From the UHGV virus genome UHGV-0144129: a stretch of 39,244 bases of DNA; one strand, given 5' to 3'. The position numbers and the translations under genes were made by a program. Origin of the DNA: a virus. The notes below the pieces were generated by a model. It searched no databases. It had not been told where the DNA came from and worked only from the letters and a program-made list of their open reading frames with translations. How positions within the stretch are numbered: the stretch's first letter is position 1; each line of letters opens with the position of its first letter. Of the stretch, positions 3,618-39,244 are shown one piece after another.

Positions 3618-4013
3618 ATGACCACGATTGATCCGCCCTCATGGTATCAGTATTTATTTTATAACCCGCCTCTCAATACACCAAGAGATTGCGGTAAAGT
3701 GGAGCAGCATGATTACCAGCTTTATCTGGCGATAAATGATATTGAGCATACGAAAACGAAAGCAATGTCATCTAAGACCAATAGTATCTGCGAGCAGTTC
3801 CATAAAACGATACTGAACGAGTTTTATCAGGTGACGTTCCGCAAAAAGTTATATGATGATCTTGAAGCATTACAATCGGTTCTTGATGAATGGCGGGTTC
3901 ACTATAATAATGAGCGAACCCATCAGGGAAAAATGTGCAGTGGCCGAACGCCGATGGAAACGTTACTTGATGGAAAGCACATCTGGGATGAGAAAAACTT
4001 AAGCCAGATGTAA
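3618..4013 (+). pseudogene. C-terminal remnant of a DDE (rve-type) IS transposase
   Basis: KTNSICEQFHKTILNEFY ... YNNERTHQGKMCSGRTPMETL resembles the C-terminal end of an integrase-core domain (IS481/IS3-like). No N-terminal HTH or DDE core upstream. No inverted repeats recognised. Confidence 0.4.
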
Positions 4014-10156: not shown

Positions 10157-10173
10157 ATTACCTTTCAGGTGAT
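10157..10173. promoter_or_regulatory. operator-like imperfect palindrome ATTACCT-TTC-AGGTGAT (family A)
   Basis: Member of a recurring TTACCT-N3-AGGTAA family. Lies about 50 bp upstream of the LexA box. Confidence 0.4.
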
Positions 10174-10209: not shown

Positions 10210-10229
10210 TACTGTATAAATATACAGTT
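10210..10229 (+). promoter_or_regulatory. LexA (SOS) box
   Basis: TACTGTATAAATATACAGTT is CTGT-N8-ACAG with an AT-rich spacer and TA flanks; 18 of 20 match the E. coli consensus TACTGTATATATATACAGTA. It sits about 20 bp upstream of the ATG at 10249. Confidence 0.65.
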
Positions 10230-10248: not shown

Positions 10249-10506
10249 ATGCAGCAGTATCACTATCCACTGGAAGACGGATTTACCGAAAGGATTCACA
10301 CGCCGGGAGGCGTCAGGTCACTGGTGGAGGGATCGCACTTGATGAAATTACTCCGGGATCTCGATAAGGATGGATTTAATGTCGATGGCCCACTTGCCGA
10401 ACTGACTGCACTGATTAACTACGTCACCAGCTCACAGATGTCTATGCGGGATCTGCAAACACATCTCGACTATTGTGCCGAACAATTACGAAAACAAACC
10501 CGGTAA
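10249..10506 (+). CDS. SOS-controlled mini-antirepressor (stand-alone copy of the Ant C-terminal domain)
   Basis: GGAG 8 nt upstream of ATG. The 85 aa product aligns over its whole length with the C-terminal about 80 aa of both Ant proteins (PLxxGxxxxIHxPxGV...DGxxVxGxxAELTxxxxYxxxxxxxxRDxQTHxxY). Confidence 0.55.
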   Translation: MQQYHYPLEDGFTERIHTPGGVRSLVEGSHLMKLLRDLDKDGFNVDGPLAELTALINYVTSSQMSMRDLQTHLDYCAEQLRKQTR

Positions 10507-10528: not shown

Positions 10529-11257
10529 CTATCGTTTCGCTTTGTGCTCATCCCAGCACGTTTTGCACCATGCCATTAAGCCGTCCGCATTTTGATTATT
10601 AGGGTAAAAGCTGGTTCGTTTTCTGCGGACATTACAAATTGGGCACCACTTCATATGGCGTGTATTCTTTGGGCCATCGAGACACCTTGCACACCATTTA
10701 GTCAATCCATCTGGATTTTTTGACGATTTCCTGAATTTTTCATATGGAAGGTTTATTCTGCATCGCAAGCACTGCTTGCTACCACTTGAAACTCTGTTAG
10801 CTGATTCTTCTTTTGGCGGCGATACAGAAGGTATTCTTGCTGGCTCTGATATTGCCTGAGGTGCTTTTTTAGATGACTGAGACGATATGTCATCACCAGG
10901 GAATCTTCCATGATATGCCGGACGCGTTGACACTCCAGGTGGAATCTCAGCTGTAAACGGCTTTGGCTGAATCAGTTGCCTCTCTTTTGCTAACTCCTGC
11001 TGTTTATAATATGTCTGGATTACCGCACTATCATAAGCAGGAGGTGCGGAAATATTAGGCGCATTACCTCCAGTTTTTTGAAACTGAGTAGAGGTGTGTT
11101 CTATCACCTGTGTACGATTAATCGTTATCTCCCCATCTTCGGTCTTTATCGTTTTGTTATGATTAACGACCGTACGATCAGAGATCTTAGTCTTGTTCTG
11201 GTTGATAACGTAAATAATCACCGCAACCACACCAACAACTATCCAGAAAACTTCCAT
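10529..11257 (-). CDS. membrane-anchored protein with tandem zinc-ribbon motifs
   Basis: SD GAGG before ATG. N-terminal TM helix, Pro/Ser-rich linker, then two repeats of a P/ADGLxxWCxxC unit with extra CxxC pairs. Transcribed immediately before the tail fibre gene. Confidence 0.5.
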   Translation of the reverse strand: MEVFWIVVGVVAVIIYVINQNKTKISDRTVVNHNKTIKTEDGEITINRTQVIEHTSTQFQKTGGNAPNISAPPAYDSAVIQTYYKQQELAKERQLIQPKPFTAEIPPGVSTRPAYHGRFPGDDISSQSSKKAPQAISEPARIPSVSPPKEESANRVSSGSKQCLRCRINLPYEKFRKSSKNPDGLTKWCARCLDGPKNTRHMKWCPICNVRRKRTSFYPNNQNADGLMAWCKTCWDEHKAKR

Positions 11258-11293: not shown

Positions 11294-11656
11294 ATCTTGC
11301 TTTCAGGTGATCAAGCGTTAAACGTAATCAACCAAATACGGTTGATTTTAATATTTCTTCGCGTTTATCATTACCTTTGCGGTAAATTTACATTGCACTC
11401 CTCTTGTGCCATAGTAATCGGGCACTGGCAAAATCCAGTGCCGGGATTGGTCTCCCGGATTACTAAGTGGCGCATACCACGCCAGACGTGGTTTTTTTAT
11501 GCGTATAGCACAGTCATGCCAGAATTATGGTGGGCTGAATGGGGGTCCGAAAGGACGCCGGTACCACTTAGGCCGGTAAGACCAACTCCGTTCAGTTCAC
11601 CACCATCTGATTGGTCTCAGCGGTGGTGATGTAATTCGCTAAGTGGAGACGCCATC

Positions 11657-12313
11657 ATGAACGCTCAACTCATCCCCGTATTCAACGGCACTATATCTAA
11701 CGAAACAGCCCTACTTTGTAATGCCCGCGATCTGCACGCTTTTTTAGGTGTTAAAAAGGTGTTTGCAGCATGGATTACAAATCGCATATCAGAATACGAA
11801 TTCATTGAAAATCAAGACTATATTTTGCTTTCCAATTTGGGAAAGCAAACATCTGGTAGAGGCGGCCACAACCGCAAAGAGTACCACCTCACCCTTGATA
11901 CAGCCAAAGAGCTGGCGATGGTCGAGCGTAACGAAAAAGGTCGCCAGGTGCGACGCTACTTCATTGAATGCGAGAAACGTTTAAGACAACAAGAAACAAA
12001 AGTGGAGAAGGTCTTGTCAGGCTTCATGCCCGCCATTATGGAGGCGATCAAGCTGGAAGACAAAAAAGAATACAGCGCCCCACTGAAGCCCGGCTACCGT
12101 AGCCTGATTCATTCGCCGTCTGGTGTTCTCGGCCTGACGGAGAACTCACTGCTGATGAATTTGCTGAACCAGTTACAGGAAGACGGGCACGATGTATCGG
12201 GCGCGGCGGCGGAGCTGACCACCATGTTCTGCTACATCGTTGGTGTGAGCAAATGCCTGCGTGATATCCAGACGCACGCGGAGTACATCAACGACAAGGC
12301 AGGATTCTTCTGA
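11657..12313 (+). CDS. antirepressor-like protein (second Ant; Bro-N/ORF6N-like N-domain plus shared Ant C-domain)
   Basis: N-terminal region ([22 protein letters not shown]...) resembles phage antirepressor / Bro N-terminal domains. The C-terminal 80 aa are near-identical to the C-terminus of the Ant at 13323-14267. Confidence 0.55.
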
Positions 12314-12337
12314 CAGAACGGCGGCACAGGGATGTGC
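12083..12337. repeat. left arm of a ~255 bp inverted repeat (3' end of ant2 plus 25 bp of 3' UTR)
   Basis: Reverse complement matches 13300-13555 at roughly 95 percent, by eye alignment. Confidence 0.7.
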
Positions 12338-12385
12338 CTTTAAATAATTCTGTACAGATTGCAGACTGGGGGTGAATAGCGTACT

Positions 12386-12402
12386 ATTACCTCACGGGTG
12401 AT
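12386..12402. promoter_or_regulatory. operator-like imperfect palindrome ATTACCT-CAC-GGGTGAT (family A)
   Basis: Same left half-site as the other family A sites; about 140 bp upstream of the gene at 12543. Confidence 0.3.
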
Positions 12403-12542
12403 CCATAGCGATTAGGCACCGATACAGGAGGAGCCCACATGAGAAAATTTGACGAGTACGAAGGCGTTTAACATTCGGATAGTTCATTTACCCTAATGGT
12501 AAATCCCGCTTAAAGAAGCATCTATATATTATGAGGTGATGT

Positions 12543-13178
12543 ATGCCACAACAACTGCTGAATCCGGCAAAGGTAACTGAGGTTTTCGCTCATCTGAACG
12601 AAACTCCAGACAACCGCGCCCTGTATTCAGAGTTAGTGAACGGCAACGATGTCACATCTGATGTCAAAGGCGTTTCTCTGGCTCCTGGATACCGCGTTGT
12701 CCGTGTAGACGATCGTAAGAAAGGCGAGATTCCACAGGCGCACTTTGAACTGTCATTGATAAATGACCTCACCGAAGAGGTAGTGTATTACAATCGTGTC
12801 ATTATCCAGCCTGACAGCTATCTTAACTGCCGTCCTGTCACGCAGATATTGGTATGGAGAACCCAGAAGCCTAAGCATCGTGCTGTGCTTCATGATTTCG
12901 CCGGCATCATCTTCATGAACTACCTCTTGGAACGGTACGATATCATCGTGTCAGATCGCAACCAGACTCATGAAGGCATGTCGTTCTGGCAGGCTCGCAT
13001 GTATGACGCACTGGAACTTGGCCTCCACCTCTATGGTTACGACATGATGACATGCGAGCTGATAGAGATGAATAACGAGGAAGAGCTTGAGAAAGGTGAA
13101 ACCTGGTTGTGGGGTGATGCGGAAAACTTCCAAAACAGATTGGCCATAATTTCAAAGCATAAGCTGCCAATAAAATAG
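12543..13178 (+). CDS. hypothetical protein (cargo between the inverted repeats)
   Basis: 211 aa ORF with normal codon usage and its own terminator. No motif recognised. Confidence 0.5.
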   Translation: MPQQLLNPAKVTEVFAHLNETPDNRALYSELVNGNDVTSDVKGVSLAPGYRVVRVDDRKKGEIPQAHFELSLINDLTEEVVYYNRVIIQPDSYLNCRPVTQILVWRTQKPKHRAVLHDFAGIIFMNYLLERYDIIVSDRNQTHEGMSFWQARMYDALELGLHLYGYDMMTCELIEMNNEEELEKGETWLWGDAENFQNRLAIISKHKLPIK

Positions 13179-13185
13179 TTCTTTA

Positions 13186-13208
13186 AGCCCGCGGCGCGGG
13201 CTTTTTTG
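13186..13208 (+). terminator. rho-independent terminator of the 12543-13178 gene
   Basis: gcccgcg-gcg-cgggc hairpin followed by T6. Confidence 0.55.
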
Positions 13209-13244
13209 TGTCTGCGGATTCCCGCCCGGGTGGCGGTGGTATTC

Positions 13245-13272
13245 GTTAAAAACAAGGCCGCGAAAGCGGCCT
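13245..13272 (-). terminator. rho-independent terminator of ant
   Basis: ggccgcgaaagcggcc hairpin; on the minus strand it is followed by a ttgttttt run. Confidence 0.5.
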
Positions 13273-13284: not shown

Positions 13285-13299
13285 GATAGTTCCGTTTTG

Positions 13300-13555
13300 C
13301 ACATCCCTGTGCCGCCGTTCTGTCAGAAGAACCCTGCCTTGTCGTTGATGTACTCCGCGTGGGTCTGGATATCACGCAGGCACTTGCTCACACCGACGAT
13401 GTAGCAGAACATGGTGGTCAGCTCCGCCGCCGCGCCCGATACATCGTGCCCGTCGTCCTGTAACTGGTTAAGCAGATTCATCAGCAGTGAGTTCTCCGTC
13501 AGGCCGAGAACACCCGACGGCGAATGAATCAGACTGCGGTAGCCGGGCTTCAGCG
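13300..13555. repeat. right arm of the ~255 bp inverted repeat (3' end of ant plus 3' UTR)
   Basis: See the left arm at 12083-12337. Confidence 0.7.
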
Positions 13556-14267
13556 GATAACCATAACATTTTGTCTGTGTTTTAATTGCCTCACGAAGCG
13601 CATCTAACATCTTGACTGCCACTTCATCATTCTCTGATGCAGATCCAGCAGGGAGATGCTCCCCTTCAAGCGGAACCCGAGCAACAAGAGACAACGCTTC
13701 GGCGAATTGATCTTCATCAATTTCTTTGTACGAACAGCCAAAATGAGATTTCAGTGACGACCACATGGTGATCATCGCCTTAGCCTGTTTTTCTTTTGGC
13801 AGAGACTGACCGCGACTCATGACGAGTTGTTTAATGGCTTCCTGCTGTTCAGTGGTTATTTTACCCGGCAACGCCTTTTTAGCTTTGCGTGGGTTAACCA
13901 CATGGCCTTTAGTCCAGTACTCGTAGAGCACATCGTCACACTCTTCCTGATACTGGATTACCTTGTCGCGGATTTCAGGGCGGACTTTGTTAGGGCTGAT
14001 GGTTTGCAACCAGCCAGCAAGTTTGCGAAGTGCCAAACAAATAATCTCACGGCGCTGTTCATCCCCAGGAAGCTGCATTGTGATTTTCACAATGCAGGTT
14101 TTAAACCGCTGCTTCATTTTCGTAAACTGTGAAGCCCAATCCATACCCATGCCTTCAACGATAGGTTTCATTGGGGTGTACGGTTCTCCGTTGTGATTGA
14201 CAACATAAAGTTCTGCGCCGTGGAATGGCACGTTGATAGTAGATACCGCTGTTGCTATACTCGTCAT
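13323..14267 (-). CDS. ant: antirepressor Ant (AntA-type N-domain plus shared C-domain)
   Basis: N-terminus (INVPFHGAELYVVNHNGEPYTPMKPIVEGMGMDW) is AntA-like. Directly downstream of the arc-like gene, as in P22 immI. Confidence 0.7.
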   Translation of the reverse strand: MTSIATAVSTINVPFHGAELYVVNHNGEPYTPMKPIVEGMGMDWASQFTKMKQRFKTCIVKITMQLPGDEQRREIICLALRKLAGWLQTISPNKVRPEIRDKVIQYQEECDDVLYEYWTKGHVVNPRKAKKALPGKITTEQQEAIKQLVMSRGQSLPKEKQAKAMITMWSSLKSHFGCSYKEIDEDQFAEALSLVARVPLEGEHLPAGSASENDEVAVKMLDALREAIKTQTKCYGYPLKPGYRSLIHSPSGVLGLTENSLLMNLLNQLQDDGHDVSGAAAELTTMFCYIVGVSKCLRDIQTHAEYINDKAGFF

Positions 14268-14339
14268 GTCGTTAATTCCTATACGTAGTTTTACGATACT
14301 GAAGCCCTGACGGTCTGGCCACCGTTGGGCTTCGCTGTT

Positions 14340-14542: not shown

Positions 14543-14571
14543 ATTGTCACACCGTGCGTCATTGATGTCAA
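14543..14571 (-). promoter_or_regulatory. candidate sigma70 promoter for arc-ant (P_ant-like)
   Basis: Minus strand: perfect -35 TTGACA (complement of 14566-14571), 17-bp spacer, -10 GACAAT (complement of 14543-14548). The palindrome above lies at the predicted start site. Confidence 0.4.
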
Positions 14572-14627
14572 GCACACGGTGAGGCATACTTCAATCATTG
14601 CAAGTAACTCAATATTTGGTGAAGAAC

Positions 14628-15059
14628 ATGAGCAGAGAAGATCCACAACTAAGGATCAGACTTCCCGTTGAAGTAAAAGAAAAAATAGAAATTTCTGCAA
14701 AAGCCAATAAGCGCTCAATGAACGCTGAAATAGTACAACGTCTTGACACCAGCTTTCTGAAAGATATTCATGAAGATGACGTAATTTCTGCTTATGAAGC
14801 AAAAATTATTGCAAACAATGCACGGCATGAAATATCAAATATTATTTTCAAAAGAACTTTTAATGAAATCAATAAGAAAATAACACTTGGACATACAAGT
14901 TTTTATATAAACCTTAATGACCTTGAACTGGAATCACTTGCAGATAATGATTACCAGATCATCTTTGAAAAAACATTTAATAAGCTCAATGAACTAGGTT
15001 ACATCATCTGTGAAAACTCATGGGATGCAGATGGTTTTGGAATTGAAATACCTGAATAG
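14628..15059 (+). CDS. mnt: Mnt-like ribbon-helix-helix repressor with a long AT-rich C-terminal extension
   Basis: MSREDPQLRIRLPVEVKEKIEISAKANKRSMNAEIVQRLDTSF closely parallels the N-terminus of P22 Mnt (sequence recalled from memory). Divergent from arc-ant. About 60 extra C-terminal residues compared with P22 Mnt. Confidence 0.6.
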   Translation: MSREDPQLRIRLPVEVKEKIEISAKANKRSMNAEIVQRLDTSFLKDIHEDDVISAYEAKIIANNARHEISNIIFKRTFNEINKKITLGHTSFYINLNDLELESLADNDYQIIFEKTFNKLNELGYIICENSWDADGFGIEIPE

Positions 15060-15149
15060 GAAGAACAAAAGGCGTGTACATATTACACGTCTTTAATACA
15101 ATTGAAAAACGCCACATTACTGATGTATGTTACAACAAGGAGCGATATT

Positions 15150-15713
15150 TTGAAAACCATATCTATATTAAAGGTTGCATTAGGCGTCGCTATTATTTTG
15201 ACTCTCTCAATATTGTTTTATTTTTACCACAAAAAAACTGCTATTGCTCTTGATGGTCACGCGGCAAACTCATTTTTCTCAGAGTACATAGTGCCGCTAT
15301 CAGGAAGCGGTATAACAAATAAATATACTGACTATGACATCAAATATGGAATTGATGATGGGGAGACTATTGCATTACATGTAATCATTAAAAACCTAAT
15401 GACAGTAAATAAAAATACAGACTTCAACGATAAAAATACAATACATCACAACAACAGCAAAACATTAATTTCTTATAGTAGCAACATCTATACGGATAAA
15501 TACCTAAAATACATCTCAGAAGATACAATAAAAGCAACCAGCGAAAAGTTAAAAAACATATATTGTGCATCCGGCAGTTTTCACAAATTATCGCCGCAAG
15601 AGCGTTTATTCTACGAAGCAAGAAAACAACGTAAGTCAATAATATTACATTATTATGCTGATTCAGGGGAGTCACTCATATTTAATATTGGGGTTTCCCC
15701 TGAATCATGCTAA
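15150..15713 (+). CDS. AT-rich membrane-anchored moron protein (candidate superinfection-exclusion or defence factor)
   Basis: Best start is TTG at 15150 with SD AAGGAG 7 nt upstream (the ORF track starts it at 15102). N-terminal TM helix (ISILKVALGVAIILTLSILFYF), then an N/K/Y/I-rich domain. Opposite strand to the flanking virion genes. Confidence 0.45.
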   Translation: MKTISILKVALGVAIILTLSILFYFYHKKTAIALDGHAANSFFSEYIVPLSGSGITNKYTDYDIKYGIDDGETIALHVIIKNLMTVNKNTDFNDKNTIHHNNSKTLISYSSNIYTDKYLKYISEDTIKATSEKLKNIYCASGSFHKLSPQERLFYEARKQRKSIILHYYADSGESLIFNIGVSPESC

Positions 15714-36377: not shown

Positions 36378-36665
36378 TTAGTCCTCATCCACTTCAACCC
36401 CATATTTCAGCGTGATGCCGTGCCAATCATCAGCCCAACTGGTTAGCCCTGGCGCATCAATGCTAGGCATATAGACGCTTGCAGTGTGGTAGCCCTTATC
36501 GTTATCAATGCTGGCAACGTGCTCGCCGTTGTATGCGCTCAGCGTGTCCAGGACGCTATAAAACTTTCCTCCGGCTGCCCTGAAATCCTTTACAGCCTTT
36601 ACAAGGCGATTCCACGCTTTTTCCTGTTCTGGCGTCAGGTCGATTAATTCCTGCAAAGTTGCCAT
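36378..36665 (-). CDS. hypothetical protein
   Basis: 95 aa acidic ORF, coupled to its neighbours. Confidence 0.35.
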   Translation of the reverse strand: MATLQELIDLTPEQEKAWNRLVKAVKDFRAAGGKFYSVLDTLSAYNGEHVASIDNDKGYHTASVYMPSIDAPGLTSWADDWHGITLKYGVEVDED

Positions 36666-36666
36666 A

Positions 36667-37401
36667 TCACCCTCCTTTGATGCCTATATTTACAGCCAGG
36701 CAAGCCTCTTTGAGCACCCAGTCAATAGCGTCTTTCCATGCCCCTGTTTCGACGGGAGGATTCGTGTGCTTTACCTGGTCGTAGAAGCGTACTGCTTTAA
36801 CCAGTCCTTCCGGCACCACTGGCACTGGCTGTTTAGCTTCTAAATCAGCAATTCTGTCAACCACGGCATCGACGGCATCTGAAAAACTGAAACAGTTACT
36901 CCACTCCGGCCTGTTCCCAGTTGCTGCAAAGTACATATCAGCTAAAGCAGACTCAGCATGGTCACGCTCATTGATGAGTAGCTCTTCGCTTTTCTCCAGT
37001 TCAGCAATACGCTTACTCCCATCCGAGATAACACCTTCGTAATACTCACGCTGCTCGTTGAGTTTTGATTTTGTCTGCTCAAGCTCAACGCGCAGCTTCC
37101 CTACCGTTAGCGCAATTTCCTCGTTCTCCTGGTCACGGCGTTTGATGTATTGCTGGTTTCTTTCCCGTTCATCCAGCAGTGCCTGCACTACTTCTGGGTT
37201 GAAAGCTGCGATATAACGAGCGTTGTTCTCTGCGTTTTTCTGTCCATCAAAGCCGGTCCATTTGATAACGTCTTCACATCGTTTATCACCGGGCGTATGC
37301 ACCGCATACGTACCAGTACCCGTCGAAATAAATGCGACCCATTCGCCCTGTGTTGCCTGTTTTGCTATCTCACGCAGTGCCTGATAATTAATTTCGCTCA
37401 T
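36667..37401 (-). CDS. Ead/Ea22-like protein
   Basis: MSEINYQALREIAKQATQGEWVA N-terminus and a central coiled coil, typical of Ead/Ea22-like proteins of lambdoid early regions. Confidence 0.5.
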   Translation of the reverse strand: MSEINYQALREIAKQATQGEWVAFISTGTGTYAVHTPGDKRCEDVIKWTGFDGQKNAENNARYIAAFNPEVVQALLDERERNQQYIKRRDQENEEIALTVGKLRVELEQTKSKLNEQREYYEGVISDGSKRIAELEKSEELLINERDHAESALADMYFAATGNRPEWSNCFSFSDAVDAVVDRIADLEAKQPVPVVPEGLVKAVRFYDQVKHTNPPVETGAWKDAIDWVLKEACLAVNIGIKGG

Positions 37402-37416
37402 TCATCGCCCCACTCA

Positions 37417-37574
37417 TCACAATATGCTTCGACAGGTGTTTTTCCTGCTTCGTAGTCATCACGCCAGGCTTCAGCATCAGCAGCACTTCCACCACGTAAC
37501 TCTGCATAATCCATTAACAGTTCATGCCATTCTTCAAAACTGACGTTGTATTTAGTTGAACCAAAATCAGCCAT
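37417..37574 (-). CDS. small acidic protein (52 aa)
   Basis: Hand-translated; not in the ORF track because it is under 60 aa. Strong SD GGAGGAAG before the ATG; stop 16 nt from the next start. Confidence 0.3.
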
Positions 37575-37657
37575 TTTGTTCTTCCTCCTCGTCTTTTATT
37601 TCGTGATATGAGTAATTGCAGTAGTTAAAGAAAATTTCTTTTGCTTCGTCATGAATT

Positions 37658-37885
37658 TCATCTGGTGTTGTCGCCAACAACATCGCAGAATGCCTGAACT
37701 GCCTTACGAGCCAGTTCATTCTCCGCCGCCAGCGCATTAGCACGCGCCAGTTGCACTTCCAGTTGCGTTGCCAAATCGCTGATCAGCTTTGCCACACTGC
37801 GCATATCAACGGCACCACATTCTGCTTTCAGTTCCGAAGCCATCTCATGCCCGGCGGCAACTAACCCTTTGATATTACTTTCCAT
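37658..37885 (-). CDS. hypothetical protein
   Basis: 75 aa helical ORF in the nin-like region. Confidence 0.35.
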   Translation of the reverse strand: MESNIKGLVAAGHEMASELKAECGAVDMRSVAKLISDLATQLEVQLARANALAAENELARKAVQAFCDVVGDNTR

Positions 37886-37946
37886 CTTTACCCTCGCTTA
37901 TCCACATAACTTATTGATTACATTGATAACTAAAAAGATCGTCGAT

Positions 37947-38291
37947 TCAGAACTCTTCGATGTTCCAGCCACCACCTGCTTTCTTTGGTTTAACCGTTAC
38001 CCCGATGATTCGGAACGGATACTGATCTGCGGCGACTTTGGTTTTCACCCTGGCGTCGTCGGTCCAGAAACCTTTCACTTCGTGCAGTTCCATCTCGCCG
38101 GTGGCGAGCATCACAGCAAAATCGGGCGTATAGAACGTGTTGTCAGCTAACCGCAACTTGATACCCTCAAATCGATACCAGACGATTCCCCCTGCACGTT
38201 TACGCTGCTCAAGGTGCTGGCAATACGCAGATTCTGTTTTGTTCATCTGGCCTGTTTTGAGTCGACCAAGAGCCTGTATCTGTTTTCTCAT
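37947..38291 (-). CDS. putative Holliday-junction-resolvase-like nuclease (PD-(D/E)XK fold, DUF1064-like)
   Basis: YTPDFAV ... GEMELHEVKG gives a PD ... E.K arrangement as in Hjc-type resolvases. First gene after P, where lambdoid phages carry recombination/resolvase functions. Confidence 0.35.
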   Translation of the reverse strand: MRKQIQALGRLKTGQMNKTESAYCQHLEQRKRAGGIVWYRFEGIKLRLADNTFYTPDFAVMLATGEMELHEVKGFWTDDARVKTKVAADQYPFRIIGVTVKPKKAGGGWNIEEF

Positions 38292-38295
38292 GATT

Positions 38296-38310
38296 TACCT
38301 CTAAGGTAAT
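38296..38310. promoter_or_regulatory. operator-like perfect palindrome TTACCT-CTA-AGGTAA (family A)
   Basis: Lies 5 bp upstream of the ATG of the 37947-38291 gene and overlaps its SD. Confidence 0.4.
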
Positions 38311-38356
38311 TAAAAACCACATAAGACACGAAATCAATAGAGTTTAGAATATTTTG

Positions 38357-38371
38357 TTACCCAACAGGTAA
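38357..38371. promoter_or_regulatory. operator-like palindrome TTACCC-AAC-AGGTAA (family A, one mismatch)
   Basis: About 47 bp from the previous site, just downstream of a weak hairpin plus T7 terminator after P. Confidence 0.35.
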
Positions 38372-38408
38372 TTGTAGAGACGTAAAAAAATGCGCTATCG
38401 CGCTGGTA

Positions 38409-39194
38409 TTACTTGATAAATCCTGCCGCCTTTCCCCGCCTGTATTCCTCCATCAGCCACTGCGCCGGTGTTATTCCCCCAAGGGTGGCGGCGTTAGGCA
38501 TGCACCCGAAACTTCTCCCTGGTGGATGGTAAACGTCTCTCCCTGTGCCCGGAGGTGTACTCATGGGCTCTGGCTTTGCCTGTATGCTGATCACCGGATC
38601 GGGTATCTGCTGTCCGGAAGCCACCTTTTTCGCCCAATCATCGAGCAGCCTGCGCGCGTGTTTCTCAACCTCAATCTCGCTAAGCTGGCGCTGATACATT
38701 GCACGGCGGGTATCACATACGACCCAGTACATAACCGGATGTCGCCACGGGAATCTTTCGGGACCACCAGGATATAAACTTTTTTCCTTGCTGTACCGGT
38801 GAAACTCCGCCATCACATCATCAATGGTGACGCCAAGAACCATCTTGCTGTCTTTACACCACTTGATGAATTGCCCTGGCGACGGCCAGAACGGAGACTC
38901 ACTGGCGCGGGCGTGGCGCATACCAGCAGAAACCTGTTCACGGGTTCGGATCCCCCCTTCGGCAAACGCAGCAATCCACTGCTGTTTTGCAGCAACTTCC
39001 TGCTCTGGCGTCTTCAGGTTGGTTACCACTGCCGCCGGAAACAGTTGTTTCAGCTGTTTGAAAAGGGCATCAACAAGCCTCTCTGCTGACATGTTCACCA
39101 CGTTGTCATTGTTGGTGTACTGATGCTCATAACCTGACATGCGAGAAAGGGCTTCTCCGTCACGGTTTTGTATCGCGGTAAAAACGTTGTTCAC
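38409..39194 (-). CDS. P: replication protein P-like (DnaB helicase loader)
   Basis: EQVSAGMRHARASESPFWPSPGQFIKWCKD matches lambda P (EQVNAGMRVARRQNRPFLPSPGQFVAWCRE, from memory). Proposed start is GTG at 39194 with SD GGAGGA 6 nt upstream, overlapping the stop of the upstream gene; the track start is ATG 39209. Confidence 0.7.
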   Translation of the reverse strand: MNNVFTAIQNRDGEALSRMSGYEHQYTNNDNVVNMSAERLVDALFKQLKQLFPAAVVTNLKTPEQEVAAKQQWIAAFAEGGIRTREQVSAGMRHARASESPFWPSPGQFIKWCKDSKMVLGVTIDDVMAEFHRYSKEKSLYPGGPERFPWRHPVMYWVVCDTRRAMYQRQLSEIEVEKHARRLLDDWAKKVASGQQIPDPVISIQAKPEPMSTPPGTGRDVYHPPGRSFGCMPNAATLGGITPAQWLMEEYRRGKAAGFIK

Positions 39195-39244
39195 AAGAAA
39201 TCCTCCCATGCTTCAGGGCTGTTCCAGTGCGGAACGTTGTTATC
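39191..39244 (-). CDS. 3' end of the upstream replication gene (O-like initiator), truncated by the window edge
   Basis: Open frame running into the window edge and ending ...DNNVPHWNSPEAWEDFL with stop TGA overlapping the P start (GTGA). Confidence 0.35.
   Translation of the reverse strand, partial: DNNVPHWNSPEAWEDFL

Follow-up and report, generated by a model that had tools for sequence, protein, structure and literature searches.

A predicted GNAT-fold phage protein encoded as exchangeable cargo between two antirepressor modules of a Uetakevirus-like prophage

The gene at positions 12543–13178 (plus strand, stop codon included) of the virus genome UHGV-0144129 encodes a 211-aa protein of PHROG 1349, a large, uncharacterised, mostly phage-borne family; the whole stretch of DNA analysed, 39,244 nt in length, is hereafter called the window. 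The element that harbours the gene is an epsilon15/phiV10-like (Uetakevirus) prophage of E. coli, and comparison with its relatives strongly supports the view that the gene is exchangeable cargo, occupying a fixed slot with an antirepressor module of the P1 type on one side and one of the P22 type on the other. The predicted structure of the protein is that of a highly divergent GNAT (acyl-CoA N-acyltransferase), and its transcription unit carries two copies of a palindrome, O1 (12387–12401, TTACCTCACGGGTGA) and O2 (12488–12502, TTACCCTAATGGTAA), which is almost certainly the operator of the phage repressor. The role that we favour, with a probability of roughly 0.4, is that of an accessory effector of the lytic phase, silenced by the repressor in the lysogen and probably acting as an acyltransferase on a component of the host or of its defence.

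The profile search revealed a full-length match of the protein to PHROG 1349 (E-value 2.9e-78, 263 bits, residues 1–209 against profile positions 10–210), a family of the same size and the same stand-alone architecture. Pfam, NCBIfam and the sequences in the PDB (phmmer) yielded no match, PADLOC-DB yielded no family at E ≤ 0.1, i.e. no known defence or anti-defence family, and no homology to a known anti-CRISPR (Acr) or anti-defence protein was detected. The AlphaFold2 model built on 39 homologues (pLDDT 85.6, pTM 0.81) contains the mixed α/β core of the GNAT fold, and the Foldseek search of the PDB returned several acetyltransferase-fold chains (KKT23, Elongator, ICL2) with a probability of 1.00, E-values of 5e-5 to 1e-3 and low TM-scores of 0.33–0.44. 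Among the fold matches in BFVD, unnamed phage proteins, most likely members of the same family, come first and are followed by NAT_SF/GNAT proteins. We regard the assignment of the model to a highly divergent GNAT fold as solid; cofactor binding and catalysis would follow from the model by analogy. The preliminary description, made by inspection of the sequence, had guessed at an anti-defence or exclusion factor and called for profile and structure-based searches: these gave the family match and the predicted fold, and no homology to a housekeeping or structural protein came to light.

Compared with members of the GNAT superfamily such as NatD/Naa40, HAT1, KKT23 and the acetyl-CoA-binding domain of ICL2 (Rv1916), to which it is 3–16% identical, the protein possesses extra N-terminal helices and a C-terminal helix-strand. 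Thirty residues are invariant in the 39-sequence alignment, many of them polar or aromatic (including Y50, Y82, Q101, W105, R106, H112, D138, T142, G145, W149, Y164 and Y166), and the best-conserved blocks are W105-R106...H112, S-D138-x-x-Q141-T142-x-x-G145-x-x-F-W149 and then Y164-x-Y166-D167. The pyrophosphate-binding loop of motif A, which in GNAT proteins joins beta4 to alpha3 and reads Q/R-x-x-G-x-G/A, has no exact instance in the protein; judged by the conserved residues, from sequence alone, the candidates for this loop are W105-R106-x5-H112 and D138-x2-Q141-T142-x2-G145-x-S147. The dipeptide Met1-Pro2 (window 12543–12548) is invariant in 39 of 39 aligned family members, although confidence in the model is low at this end of the chain; processing of the N-terminus, or a function of the proline there, could be the reason.

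The open reading frame (ORF) is a real gene under strong constraint and not a chance ORF, since against a 96%-identical relative (locus L028) it exhibits pS 0.415 with a nonsynonymous difference of 1.8% (dN/dS 0.03), and against the copy from Dickeya pN 0.066 with pS 0.759, where synonymous sites are saturated. Its product is a soluble, hydrophilic, acidic protein (pI 5.3, ~24.6 kDa) with no transmembrane segment. The ATG is preceded at a distance of 3 nt by the Shine-Dalgarno sequence GAGGTG (12534–12539, plus strand), and the gene is followed by a canonical intrinsic terminator (13185–13210, plus strand), composed of a stem-loop at 13185–13203 (8-bp stem with 6 G-C pairs, 3-nt loop, -13.4 kcal/mol) and a U-tract, UUUUUUGUGU. 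The ORF and a strong terminator behind it had both been noticed in the preliminary description, and both were found as reported there.

The same description had placed the ORF between the 3' ends of two ant genes, and indeed it lies between the arms of an inverted repeat (258 nt each, 96% complementary, spaced by 961 nt). The left arm (12080–12337, plus strand) consists of the 3' end of an AntA-type ant gene (11657–12313, plus strand; PF08346, E-value 4e-26), which encodes its C-terminal domain, together with a hairpin; the right arm (13299–13556, minus strand) consists of the 3' end of a P22_AR_N-type ant gene (13323–14267, minus strand; PF10547, E-value 1e-44), which encodes the same C-terminal domain, again with a hairpin. 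The two genes are thus convergent and have the C-terminal domain (phrog_450 / phrog_15539) in common. A 1-kb query across the cargo unit found matches, comprising at least one flank of the slot, in 518 of 5,426 complete E. coli genomes, and in 11 of the 5,426 the match covered at least 80% of the query, by which we take these 11 to hold the 211-aa ORF. Between the same flanks the other alleles carry a protein of the DUF4760 type, a YafO-like toxin preceded by a small ORF, or a 210-aa paralogue with 30% identity to the 211-aa protein (E-value 2e-17); a 53-aa membrane peptide is encoded as well in some alleles and not in others. The word cargo, used of the gene in the preliminary description, is therefore apt. 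It is an addition to an otherwise conserved gene order, occurs in just some of the relatives and is provided with its own terminator, and so has the anatomy of a moron in the Hendrix/Juhala sense.

The breakpoints between alleles are informative. All alleles share the left flank up to 12399, where O1 has its 3' edge. The leader (to 12484) and the terminator are found in the DUF4760 allele as well, with homology resuming at 13184, and in the other alleles homology resumes at 13211. In the relatives L027 and L028 the 211-aa gene is joined straight to the slot promoter, with no leader, via a single hybrid operator (3890–4008 against window 12340–12550), the left half of which resembles O1 and the right half O2; these alleles bear the mark of recombination between operator copies. 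The segment 13211–13249 (plus strand), which opens the right flank of the other alleles, is a remnant, as its counterpart there is the final 39 nt of the gene for the 53-aa 'transmembrane anchored protein'. These breakpoints assign the regulatory flanks to the slot, not to the 211-aa gene, and the operators coincide with recombination junctions; they may serve as 'boundary sequences' for cassette exchange. The earlier notion of a self-contained unit thus holds in part: in the Dickeya copy (89% identical at the protein level) DNA homology is confined to the ORF, but the first operator is owned by the slot, and the leader and the terminator are common to the DUF4760 allele. The locus as a whole illustrates the arrangement of accessory genes in this phage group, with a fixed slot between two antirepressor modules, a common promoter/operator and terminator, interchangeable ORFs and junctions at the operator, and the genes that share the slot make up a short list of candidates for a part in host shut-off or counter-defence.

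In the window, 9 distinct sites (10158, 11278, 11371, 12387, 12488, 30766, 33974, 38295 and 38357) carry the palindrome, TTACC-N5-GGT(A/G)A, against 0.07 expected from shuffled sequences. O1 begins with the last T of a candidate -10 hexamer and corresponds to the operator-like site (12386–12402, ATTACCTCACGGGTGAT) of the preliminary description; the count confirms that this site is real, but it is not private to the gene, being part of the left flank that every allele has. O2, which has a perfect pair of palindrome arms and is situated 41 nt ahead of the ATG, is missing from that description, and it is this copy that travels with the 211-aa gene. The immunity region is absent from the window, and the layout of the operators was read in two sister genomes. 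One of them, phage TL-2011b, shows 95.8% identity around the slot and has the palindrome at 12 sites. Two of these separate gp10, the helix-turn-helix (HTH) repressor gene, from the cro-like gp11, which is divergent to it; two more follow the 3' end of gp10, before the early-left operon. In the E. coli P4 guaA-integrated prophage, which is 100% identical to window 36500–39244, palindromes lie at 13141 and 13189 between the cro-like and repressor genes and at 13901 and 13963 at the start of the leftward operon, where PL reads TTGACA-N17-AATTAT and the operator begins inside the -10 (AATTAT/TACC). Owing to this classical OR/OL arrangement around the repressor gene, the 194-aa HTH repressor almost certainly has the palindrome as its operator, and Cro probably has it too, as far as binding can be read from position. 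In the 194-aa repressor of the sister prophage HTH domains were the only ones recognised, with no S24 peptidase, which fits induction through antirepressors. No palindrome is present at the unit of an mnt-like gene and a 203-aa membrane protein gene (14598–15713 in the window), nor at the O-antigen acetyltransferase gene of TL-2011b, both of which would, by analogy, be expected to be expressed in the lysogen. If this holds, a simple rule would apply to Uetakevirus-like prophages: a gene without the operator serves lysogenic conversion, a gene with it is an accessory gene of the lytic phase. The paper on ZX5 verified a repressor and an antirepressor and defined no operator, and in the literature searched we found no description of a Uetakevirus operator of the TTACC type, nor of the fold assignment, the anatomy of the slot or PHROG 1349.

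Copies of the operator are scattered over the whole phage, beyond OR/OL, in the window as well as in loci L015 and L016: they are situated just upstream of terS, close to the portal gene, between the genes for the helicase loader and the resolvase, and ahead of each plus-strand gene in the ant region, and a copy with 1 mismatch is found at 33956, beside that at 33974. Among the 122 matches to TACTAT plus operator listed from IMG/VR, 68 precede terS. These scattered copies recall the 'stoperators' of mycobacteriophage L5, but the sites here are palindromic.

The candidate promoter of the cargo unit, TTGCAG-N17-TACTAT (12359–12387, plus strand; 7/12 positions as in the consensus), is alike in layout to PL of the sister prophage (TTGCAG-N17-TACTAT/TACC versus TTGACA-N17-AATTAT/TACC). 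The hairpin past the stop codon of the AntA-type ant gene (12323–12338, plus strand; -10.1 kcal/mol, then UUUAAAUAAUU) is a weak terminator, so that some read-through from this gene into the cargo is possible. Any transcription from upstream, be it from the promoter or by read-through, meets two operators before it reaches the 211-aa ORF, and because both operators lie on its transcription unit the gene is most likely silent in the lysogen. Between them extends the 5' leader (12400–12484, plus strand, 85 nt), common to the DUF4760 allele and absent from the L027 and L028 alleles, with a mini-ORF of 10 codons (MRKFDEYEGV, 12439–12471, plus strand) behind a strong AGGAGG Shine-Dalgarno sequence (12427–12432). 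In the DUF4760 allele a hairpin resembling a terminator (GGGGCCATTAGGCCCC-GTTTT) comes after the mini-ORF, directly ahead of the gene, and may be an attenuator. For the 150-nt leader of the window, a riboswitch or attenuator was rejected on the fold z-score (+0.46), the Rfam match to Trp_leader (E-value 0.95) is noise, and a promoter directly upstream of O2 was rejected for lack of acceptable hexamers.

Database searches revealed that the 211-aa sequence is common though unannotated. The exact sequence is present on 716 contigs, with all database names being 'hypothetical' or 'phage protein'; 94 close homologues, all stand-alone and ~210 aa long, come from Enterobacterales (Escherichia, Salmonella, Dickeya, Serratia, Klebsiella, Yersinia, Erwinia, Xenorhabdus and Photorhabdus), and the family extends to 917 representative clusters at E ≤ 1e-3, with a fused domain in 0 of the best 150. 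If the fold and the proposed role are correct, this widespread family would gain both a fold and a testable hypothesis, namely an effector of the acyltransferase type produced at the lytic switch. A tblastn search of 50,697 phage records returned one distant match for the 211-aa protein (in the lambdoid phage LLS) and four for its 30%-identical paralogue. Relatives occupy the classical moron slots of unrelated phages: after the tailspike gene in Uetakevirus-like prophages (E. coli, Dickeya, L038), between the tail chaperone and tape measure genes in sipho- and myovirus prophages (Yersinia, L036, L039, L046, L047), and after the Rz/Rz1 lysis genes in LLS; others are isolated genes in the chromosomes of Photorhabdus and Enterobacter. 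No conserved partner gene was found in the E. coli, Dickeya, Yersinia, Photorhabdus, Enterobacter, LLS or IMG/VR contexts, which argues against a two-gene toxin-antitoxin or defence system.

A perfect TTACC-N5-GGTAA also lies 72–87 nt before the ATG of the relatives in the Dickeya Uetakevirus-like prophage, in the Yersinia myovirus prophage and in LLS. In LLS it is the sole perfect copy in 42.9 kb and abuts a TACTAT hexamer (TTGGCT-N17-TACTAT/TACC), and the OR region of that phage is without the palindrome. The Photorhabdus/Xenorhabdus clade has TGAAC-N5-GTTCA at -83 to -105 instead (L039, L040, L042, L045, L046, L008 and L010), with conserved arms and free spacers. Autoregulation by the 211-aa protein was considered and rejected: the 30%-identical paralogue has the TTACC palindrome and the 60%-identical Photorhabdus clade does not, so that the palindrome follows the phage or host environment and not the protein. 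Its presence beside the gene elsewhere may reflect either carry-over of an operator-plus-gene cassette or repressor specificities common to different phages. The Photorhabdus copy L008 additionally has TTATCAATTTGATAA at -62, and the Enterobacter copy (L014) has TGGGTACCTGACCCA at about -35. The former is part of a segment of 1,553 nt that recurs with 99.5% identity in two unrelated chromosomal contexts and is bounded by ~127-nt repeats, ERIC-like in size (L008 4724–4850, 6149–6275, 6635–6761, 6007–6124 and 1338–1431), which suggests repeat-mediated movement.

According to the reading that we favour, the phage repressor, sitting at O1, which abuts the candidate -10, and at O2 in the leader, would keep the gene silent in the lysogen. 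Where repression is absent or lifted, as when a naive cell is infected or the prophage is induced, the gene would be expressed together with the neighbouring antirepressors; the protein would then transfer an acyl group to a conserved component of the host or of its defence, or bind it via the acyl-CoA cleft, and lytic growth would be favoured through counter-defence or host takeover. We infer the repression, the promoter and the timing, as well as an enzymatic activity and its target. An anti-defence role is plausible, and a role in infection or induction, such as counter-defence, is compatible with the operators; superinfection exclusion in the lysogen, the less likely half of the earlier guess, is disfavoured, as two immunity operators, one overlapping the candidate promoter and one beyond it, speak against expression there. 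A functional analogy is offered by small single-gene phage proteins of the GNAT fold that hit host or defence targets in lytic growth: AcrVA5, Rac and Mom, of which Mom was compared with the 211-aa protein directly. AcrVA5 acetylates Cas12a. Rac of phiKMV is reported to inactivate the alpha subunit of RNA polymerase (PMC7552054), and Mom of Mu, which is also tightly off outside the lytic phase, carries out tRNA-dependent DNA modification (PMC13219725, PMC7261163). A DNA-modifying enzyme of the Mom type was rejected as a model: Mom is defined by an HTH-like insertion and the catalytic residues R111 and S124 (PMC13219725), whereas the 211-aa protein is acidic, with no such insertion evident; hhalign found no sequence similarity between the two (probability 0.2), and Mom appears in BFVD at rank 44 (E-value 4e-3, TM-score 0.36). 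The operons of acr and aca genes provide another functional analogy, as an accessory gene with a palindromic operator over its strong early promoter that is expressed in a burst on infection and then shut off; they differ from the present cassette, which has no dedicated aca-like HTH gene and uses the operator of the main phage repressor.

Several observations weigh against an effector silenced by the repressor. Repressor binding and repression are deduced from the position of the sites, and in LLS the palindrome, being the sole perfect copy, cannot be the operator of the resident repressor. The candidate promoter is weak (7/12), falls below the threshold and was not called in the promoter scan, and in the 99%-identical relative L027 a 7-nt deletion in the spacer spoils the spacing of the -35. 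The copies in Photorhabdus and Enterobacter stand in non-prophage chromosomal contexts, which fits a gene beneficial to the host better than a counter-defence gene, and the very strong purifying selection is atypical of anti-defence proteins of the inhibitor type. With regard to the fold, 127 diverse family members gave no match to the Pfam GNAT clan (four Pfam matches of single members were taken as stray), the family profile had 0 matches among PDB sequences at E ≤ 10, and hhalign of that profile with E. coli RimI gave a probability of 0.06; the database search with RimI for a GNAT profile returned only orthologues of at least 80% identity, which are too uniform.

The main rival, unlikely in our judgement and yet to be taken seriously, is a lysogen-protective moron, made in the lysogen constitutively, by leakage or upon a signal acting at the palindrome, that benefits the host by defence against other phages, by detoxification of an acylatable toxin or antibiotic, or by another fitness function. 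Classical morons are expressed from the repressed prophage. Those of temperate phages, such as HK97 gp15 and lambda bor, are single genes with a terminator and probably their own promoter, inserted between conserved genes in slots of the same kinds and found in some close relatives but not in others, as is the 211-aa gene; its moron anatomy and the positions of its relatives (after the tailspike, between tail chaperone and tape measure, after Rz), as well as the chromosomal copies and the purifying selection mentioned above, agree with such a role. In contrast to classical morons, the gene has the G+C content of its phage (47.6% against 47.2%, no difference) and bears two immunity operators, where the mnt-like/203-aa unit and the O-acetyltransferase gene of TL-2011b have none, and PADLOC offers no match. 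Moreover, the fold matches in BFVD include putative family members from Agrobacterium phage Atu_ph07, and a partial tblastn match was obtained in Burkholderia phage BCSR5 (227 kb); if these two are lytic jumbo phages, as we take them to be, a role in phage growth would be preferred over lysogenic conversion.

A bolder form of the favoured reading, which we hold to be rather unlikely, is that PHROG 1349 is a sequence-orphan branch of GNAT, an immunity-gated effector that is released solely upon absence or inactivation of the prophage repressor and acylates a conserved host or defence target, and that the 15-bp operators double as portable recombination joints; cassettes with PHROG 1349, YafO-like toxins or DUF4760 would then be swapped at the operators both within the slot and between unrelated phages. 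Or perhaps the protein could be a non-catalytic sensor or binder of the GNAT fold, like the C-terminal domain of ICL2, that binds acyl-CoA or a partner such as the repressor or Ant and modulates the lysis-lysogeny switch? There is no canonical catalytic or CoA motif, and the gene is embedded in a region with three antirepressors, but the conserved polar residues R106, D138, Q141, T142, Y164 and D167 look like an active site, and the slot holds unrelated cargo while in other phages the gene lies far from ant genes, so that no dedicated partner emerges; we consider this option quite improbable. Least probable is a toxin held by the repressor, i.e. a growth-arresting enzyme of the GNAT type, such as an acetylase of aminoacyl-tRNA or of a translation factor, whose 'antitoxin' would be transcriptional repression by the prophage and which would fire on induction (host shut-off) or when the antirepressor of an invader inactivates the repressor (abortive infection): the YafO-like translation toxin is another allele of the same slot and operator control would keep a toxin silent, but no antitoxin gene is adjacent in the contexts inspected, the likeness to toxin GNATs is lower than that to protein and histone acetyltransferases, and the conserved, widespread stand-alone copies in chromosomes without the phage repressor are hard to square with toxicity. 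A type II GNAT toxin (TacT, AtaT, KacT) was rejected separately, as no RHH (ribbon-helix-helix)/DUF1778 antitoxin gene adjoins the gene in these contexts; upstream of it there is only the 10-codon mini-ORF, which is missing in L027 and L028.

The modules that flank the slot correspond exactly to known immunity regions. On one side, the mnt-like, arc-like and ant genes and the sar RNA are arranged as in the immI region of P22, and on the other side the C4 RNA, the a1b1 targets and the AntA-type ant gene as in immI of P1; here, however, the two modules face each other with the cargo slot between them, and the AntA module and the cargo additionally bear immunity operators. The P22_AR_N-type ant gene has its own terminator (13255–13272, minus strand; -16.5 kcal/mol for the folded 36-nt segment 13250–13285, z-score -3.6). 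Opposite the start of this gene Rfam identified the sar antisense RNA (14269–14336, plus strand, 45.2 bits), and a strong Pant-like promoter, TTGACA-N17-GACAAT with TG (14543–14571, minus strand), is flanked by the inverted repeat CACCGTG...CACGGTG (~14550–14582), likely an operator of the Arc/Mnt type; taken together, these elements constitute a P22 immI module. Ahead of the AntA-type gene Rfam identified isrK (11422–11498, plus strand, 67.7 bits) and the C4 antisense RNA (11523–11607, plus strand, 61.2 bits), with a1b1 targets at 11409–11461, and the stretch 11409–11607 represents RNA control of the P1/P7 immI type; the promoter in front of it, TTGATT-N18-TATCAT (11342–11371), abuts an immunity operator.

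The ant region contains three antirepressor-type genes with one common C-terminal domain and three different controls. The third, an 85-aa gene (10249–10506, plus strand), encodes solely the C-terminal domain of both Ant proteins (phrog_450) and is directly preceded by a canonical LexA box, taCTGTATAAATATACAGtt, at 10212–10227, with an immunity operator (10158–10172) 40 nt further upstream; the same LexA box is found in the Dickeya relative (L007, 5527–5542). The gene is probably a small SOS-inducible antirepressor of the Tum/Gifsy type, which fits the sister-prophage repressor with its HTH domains and no S24 peptidase. Between this gene and the AntA module lies the gene for a 242-aa protein (10529–11257, minus strand, phrog_6762) that has an N-terminal hydrophobic segment and, in its C-terminal part, repeated CxxC modules with weak likeness to endonuclease VII, HNH and Lar-like zinc fingers. 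The 203-aa membrane protein (15102–15713, plus strand, phrog_8033) adjoins the mnt-like gene, in the place of sieA in P22; its PADLOC match to ThsB/TIR is not significant (E-value 0.015). With no immunity operator on its gene, it is a better candidate than the 211-aa protein for an exclusion factor expressed in the lysogen.

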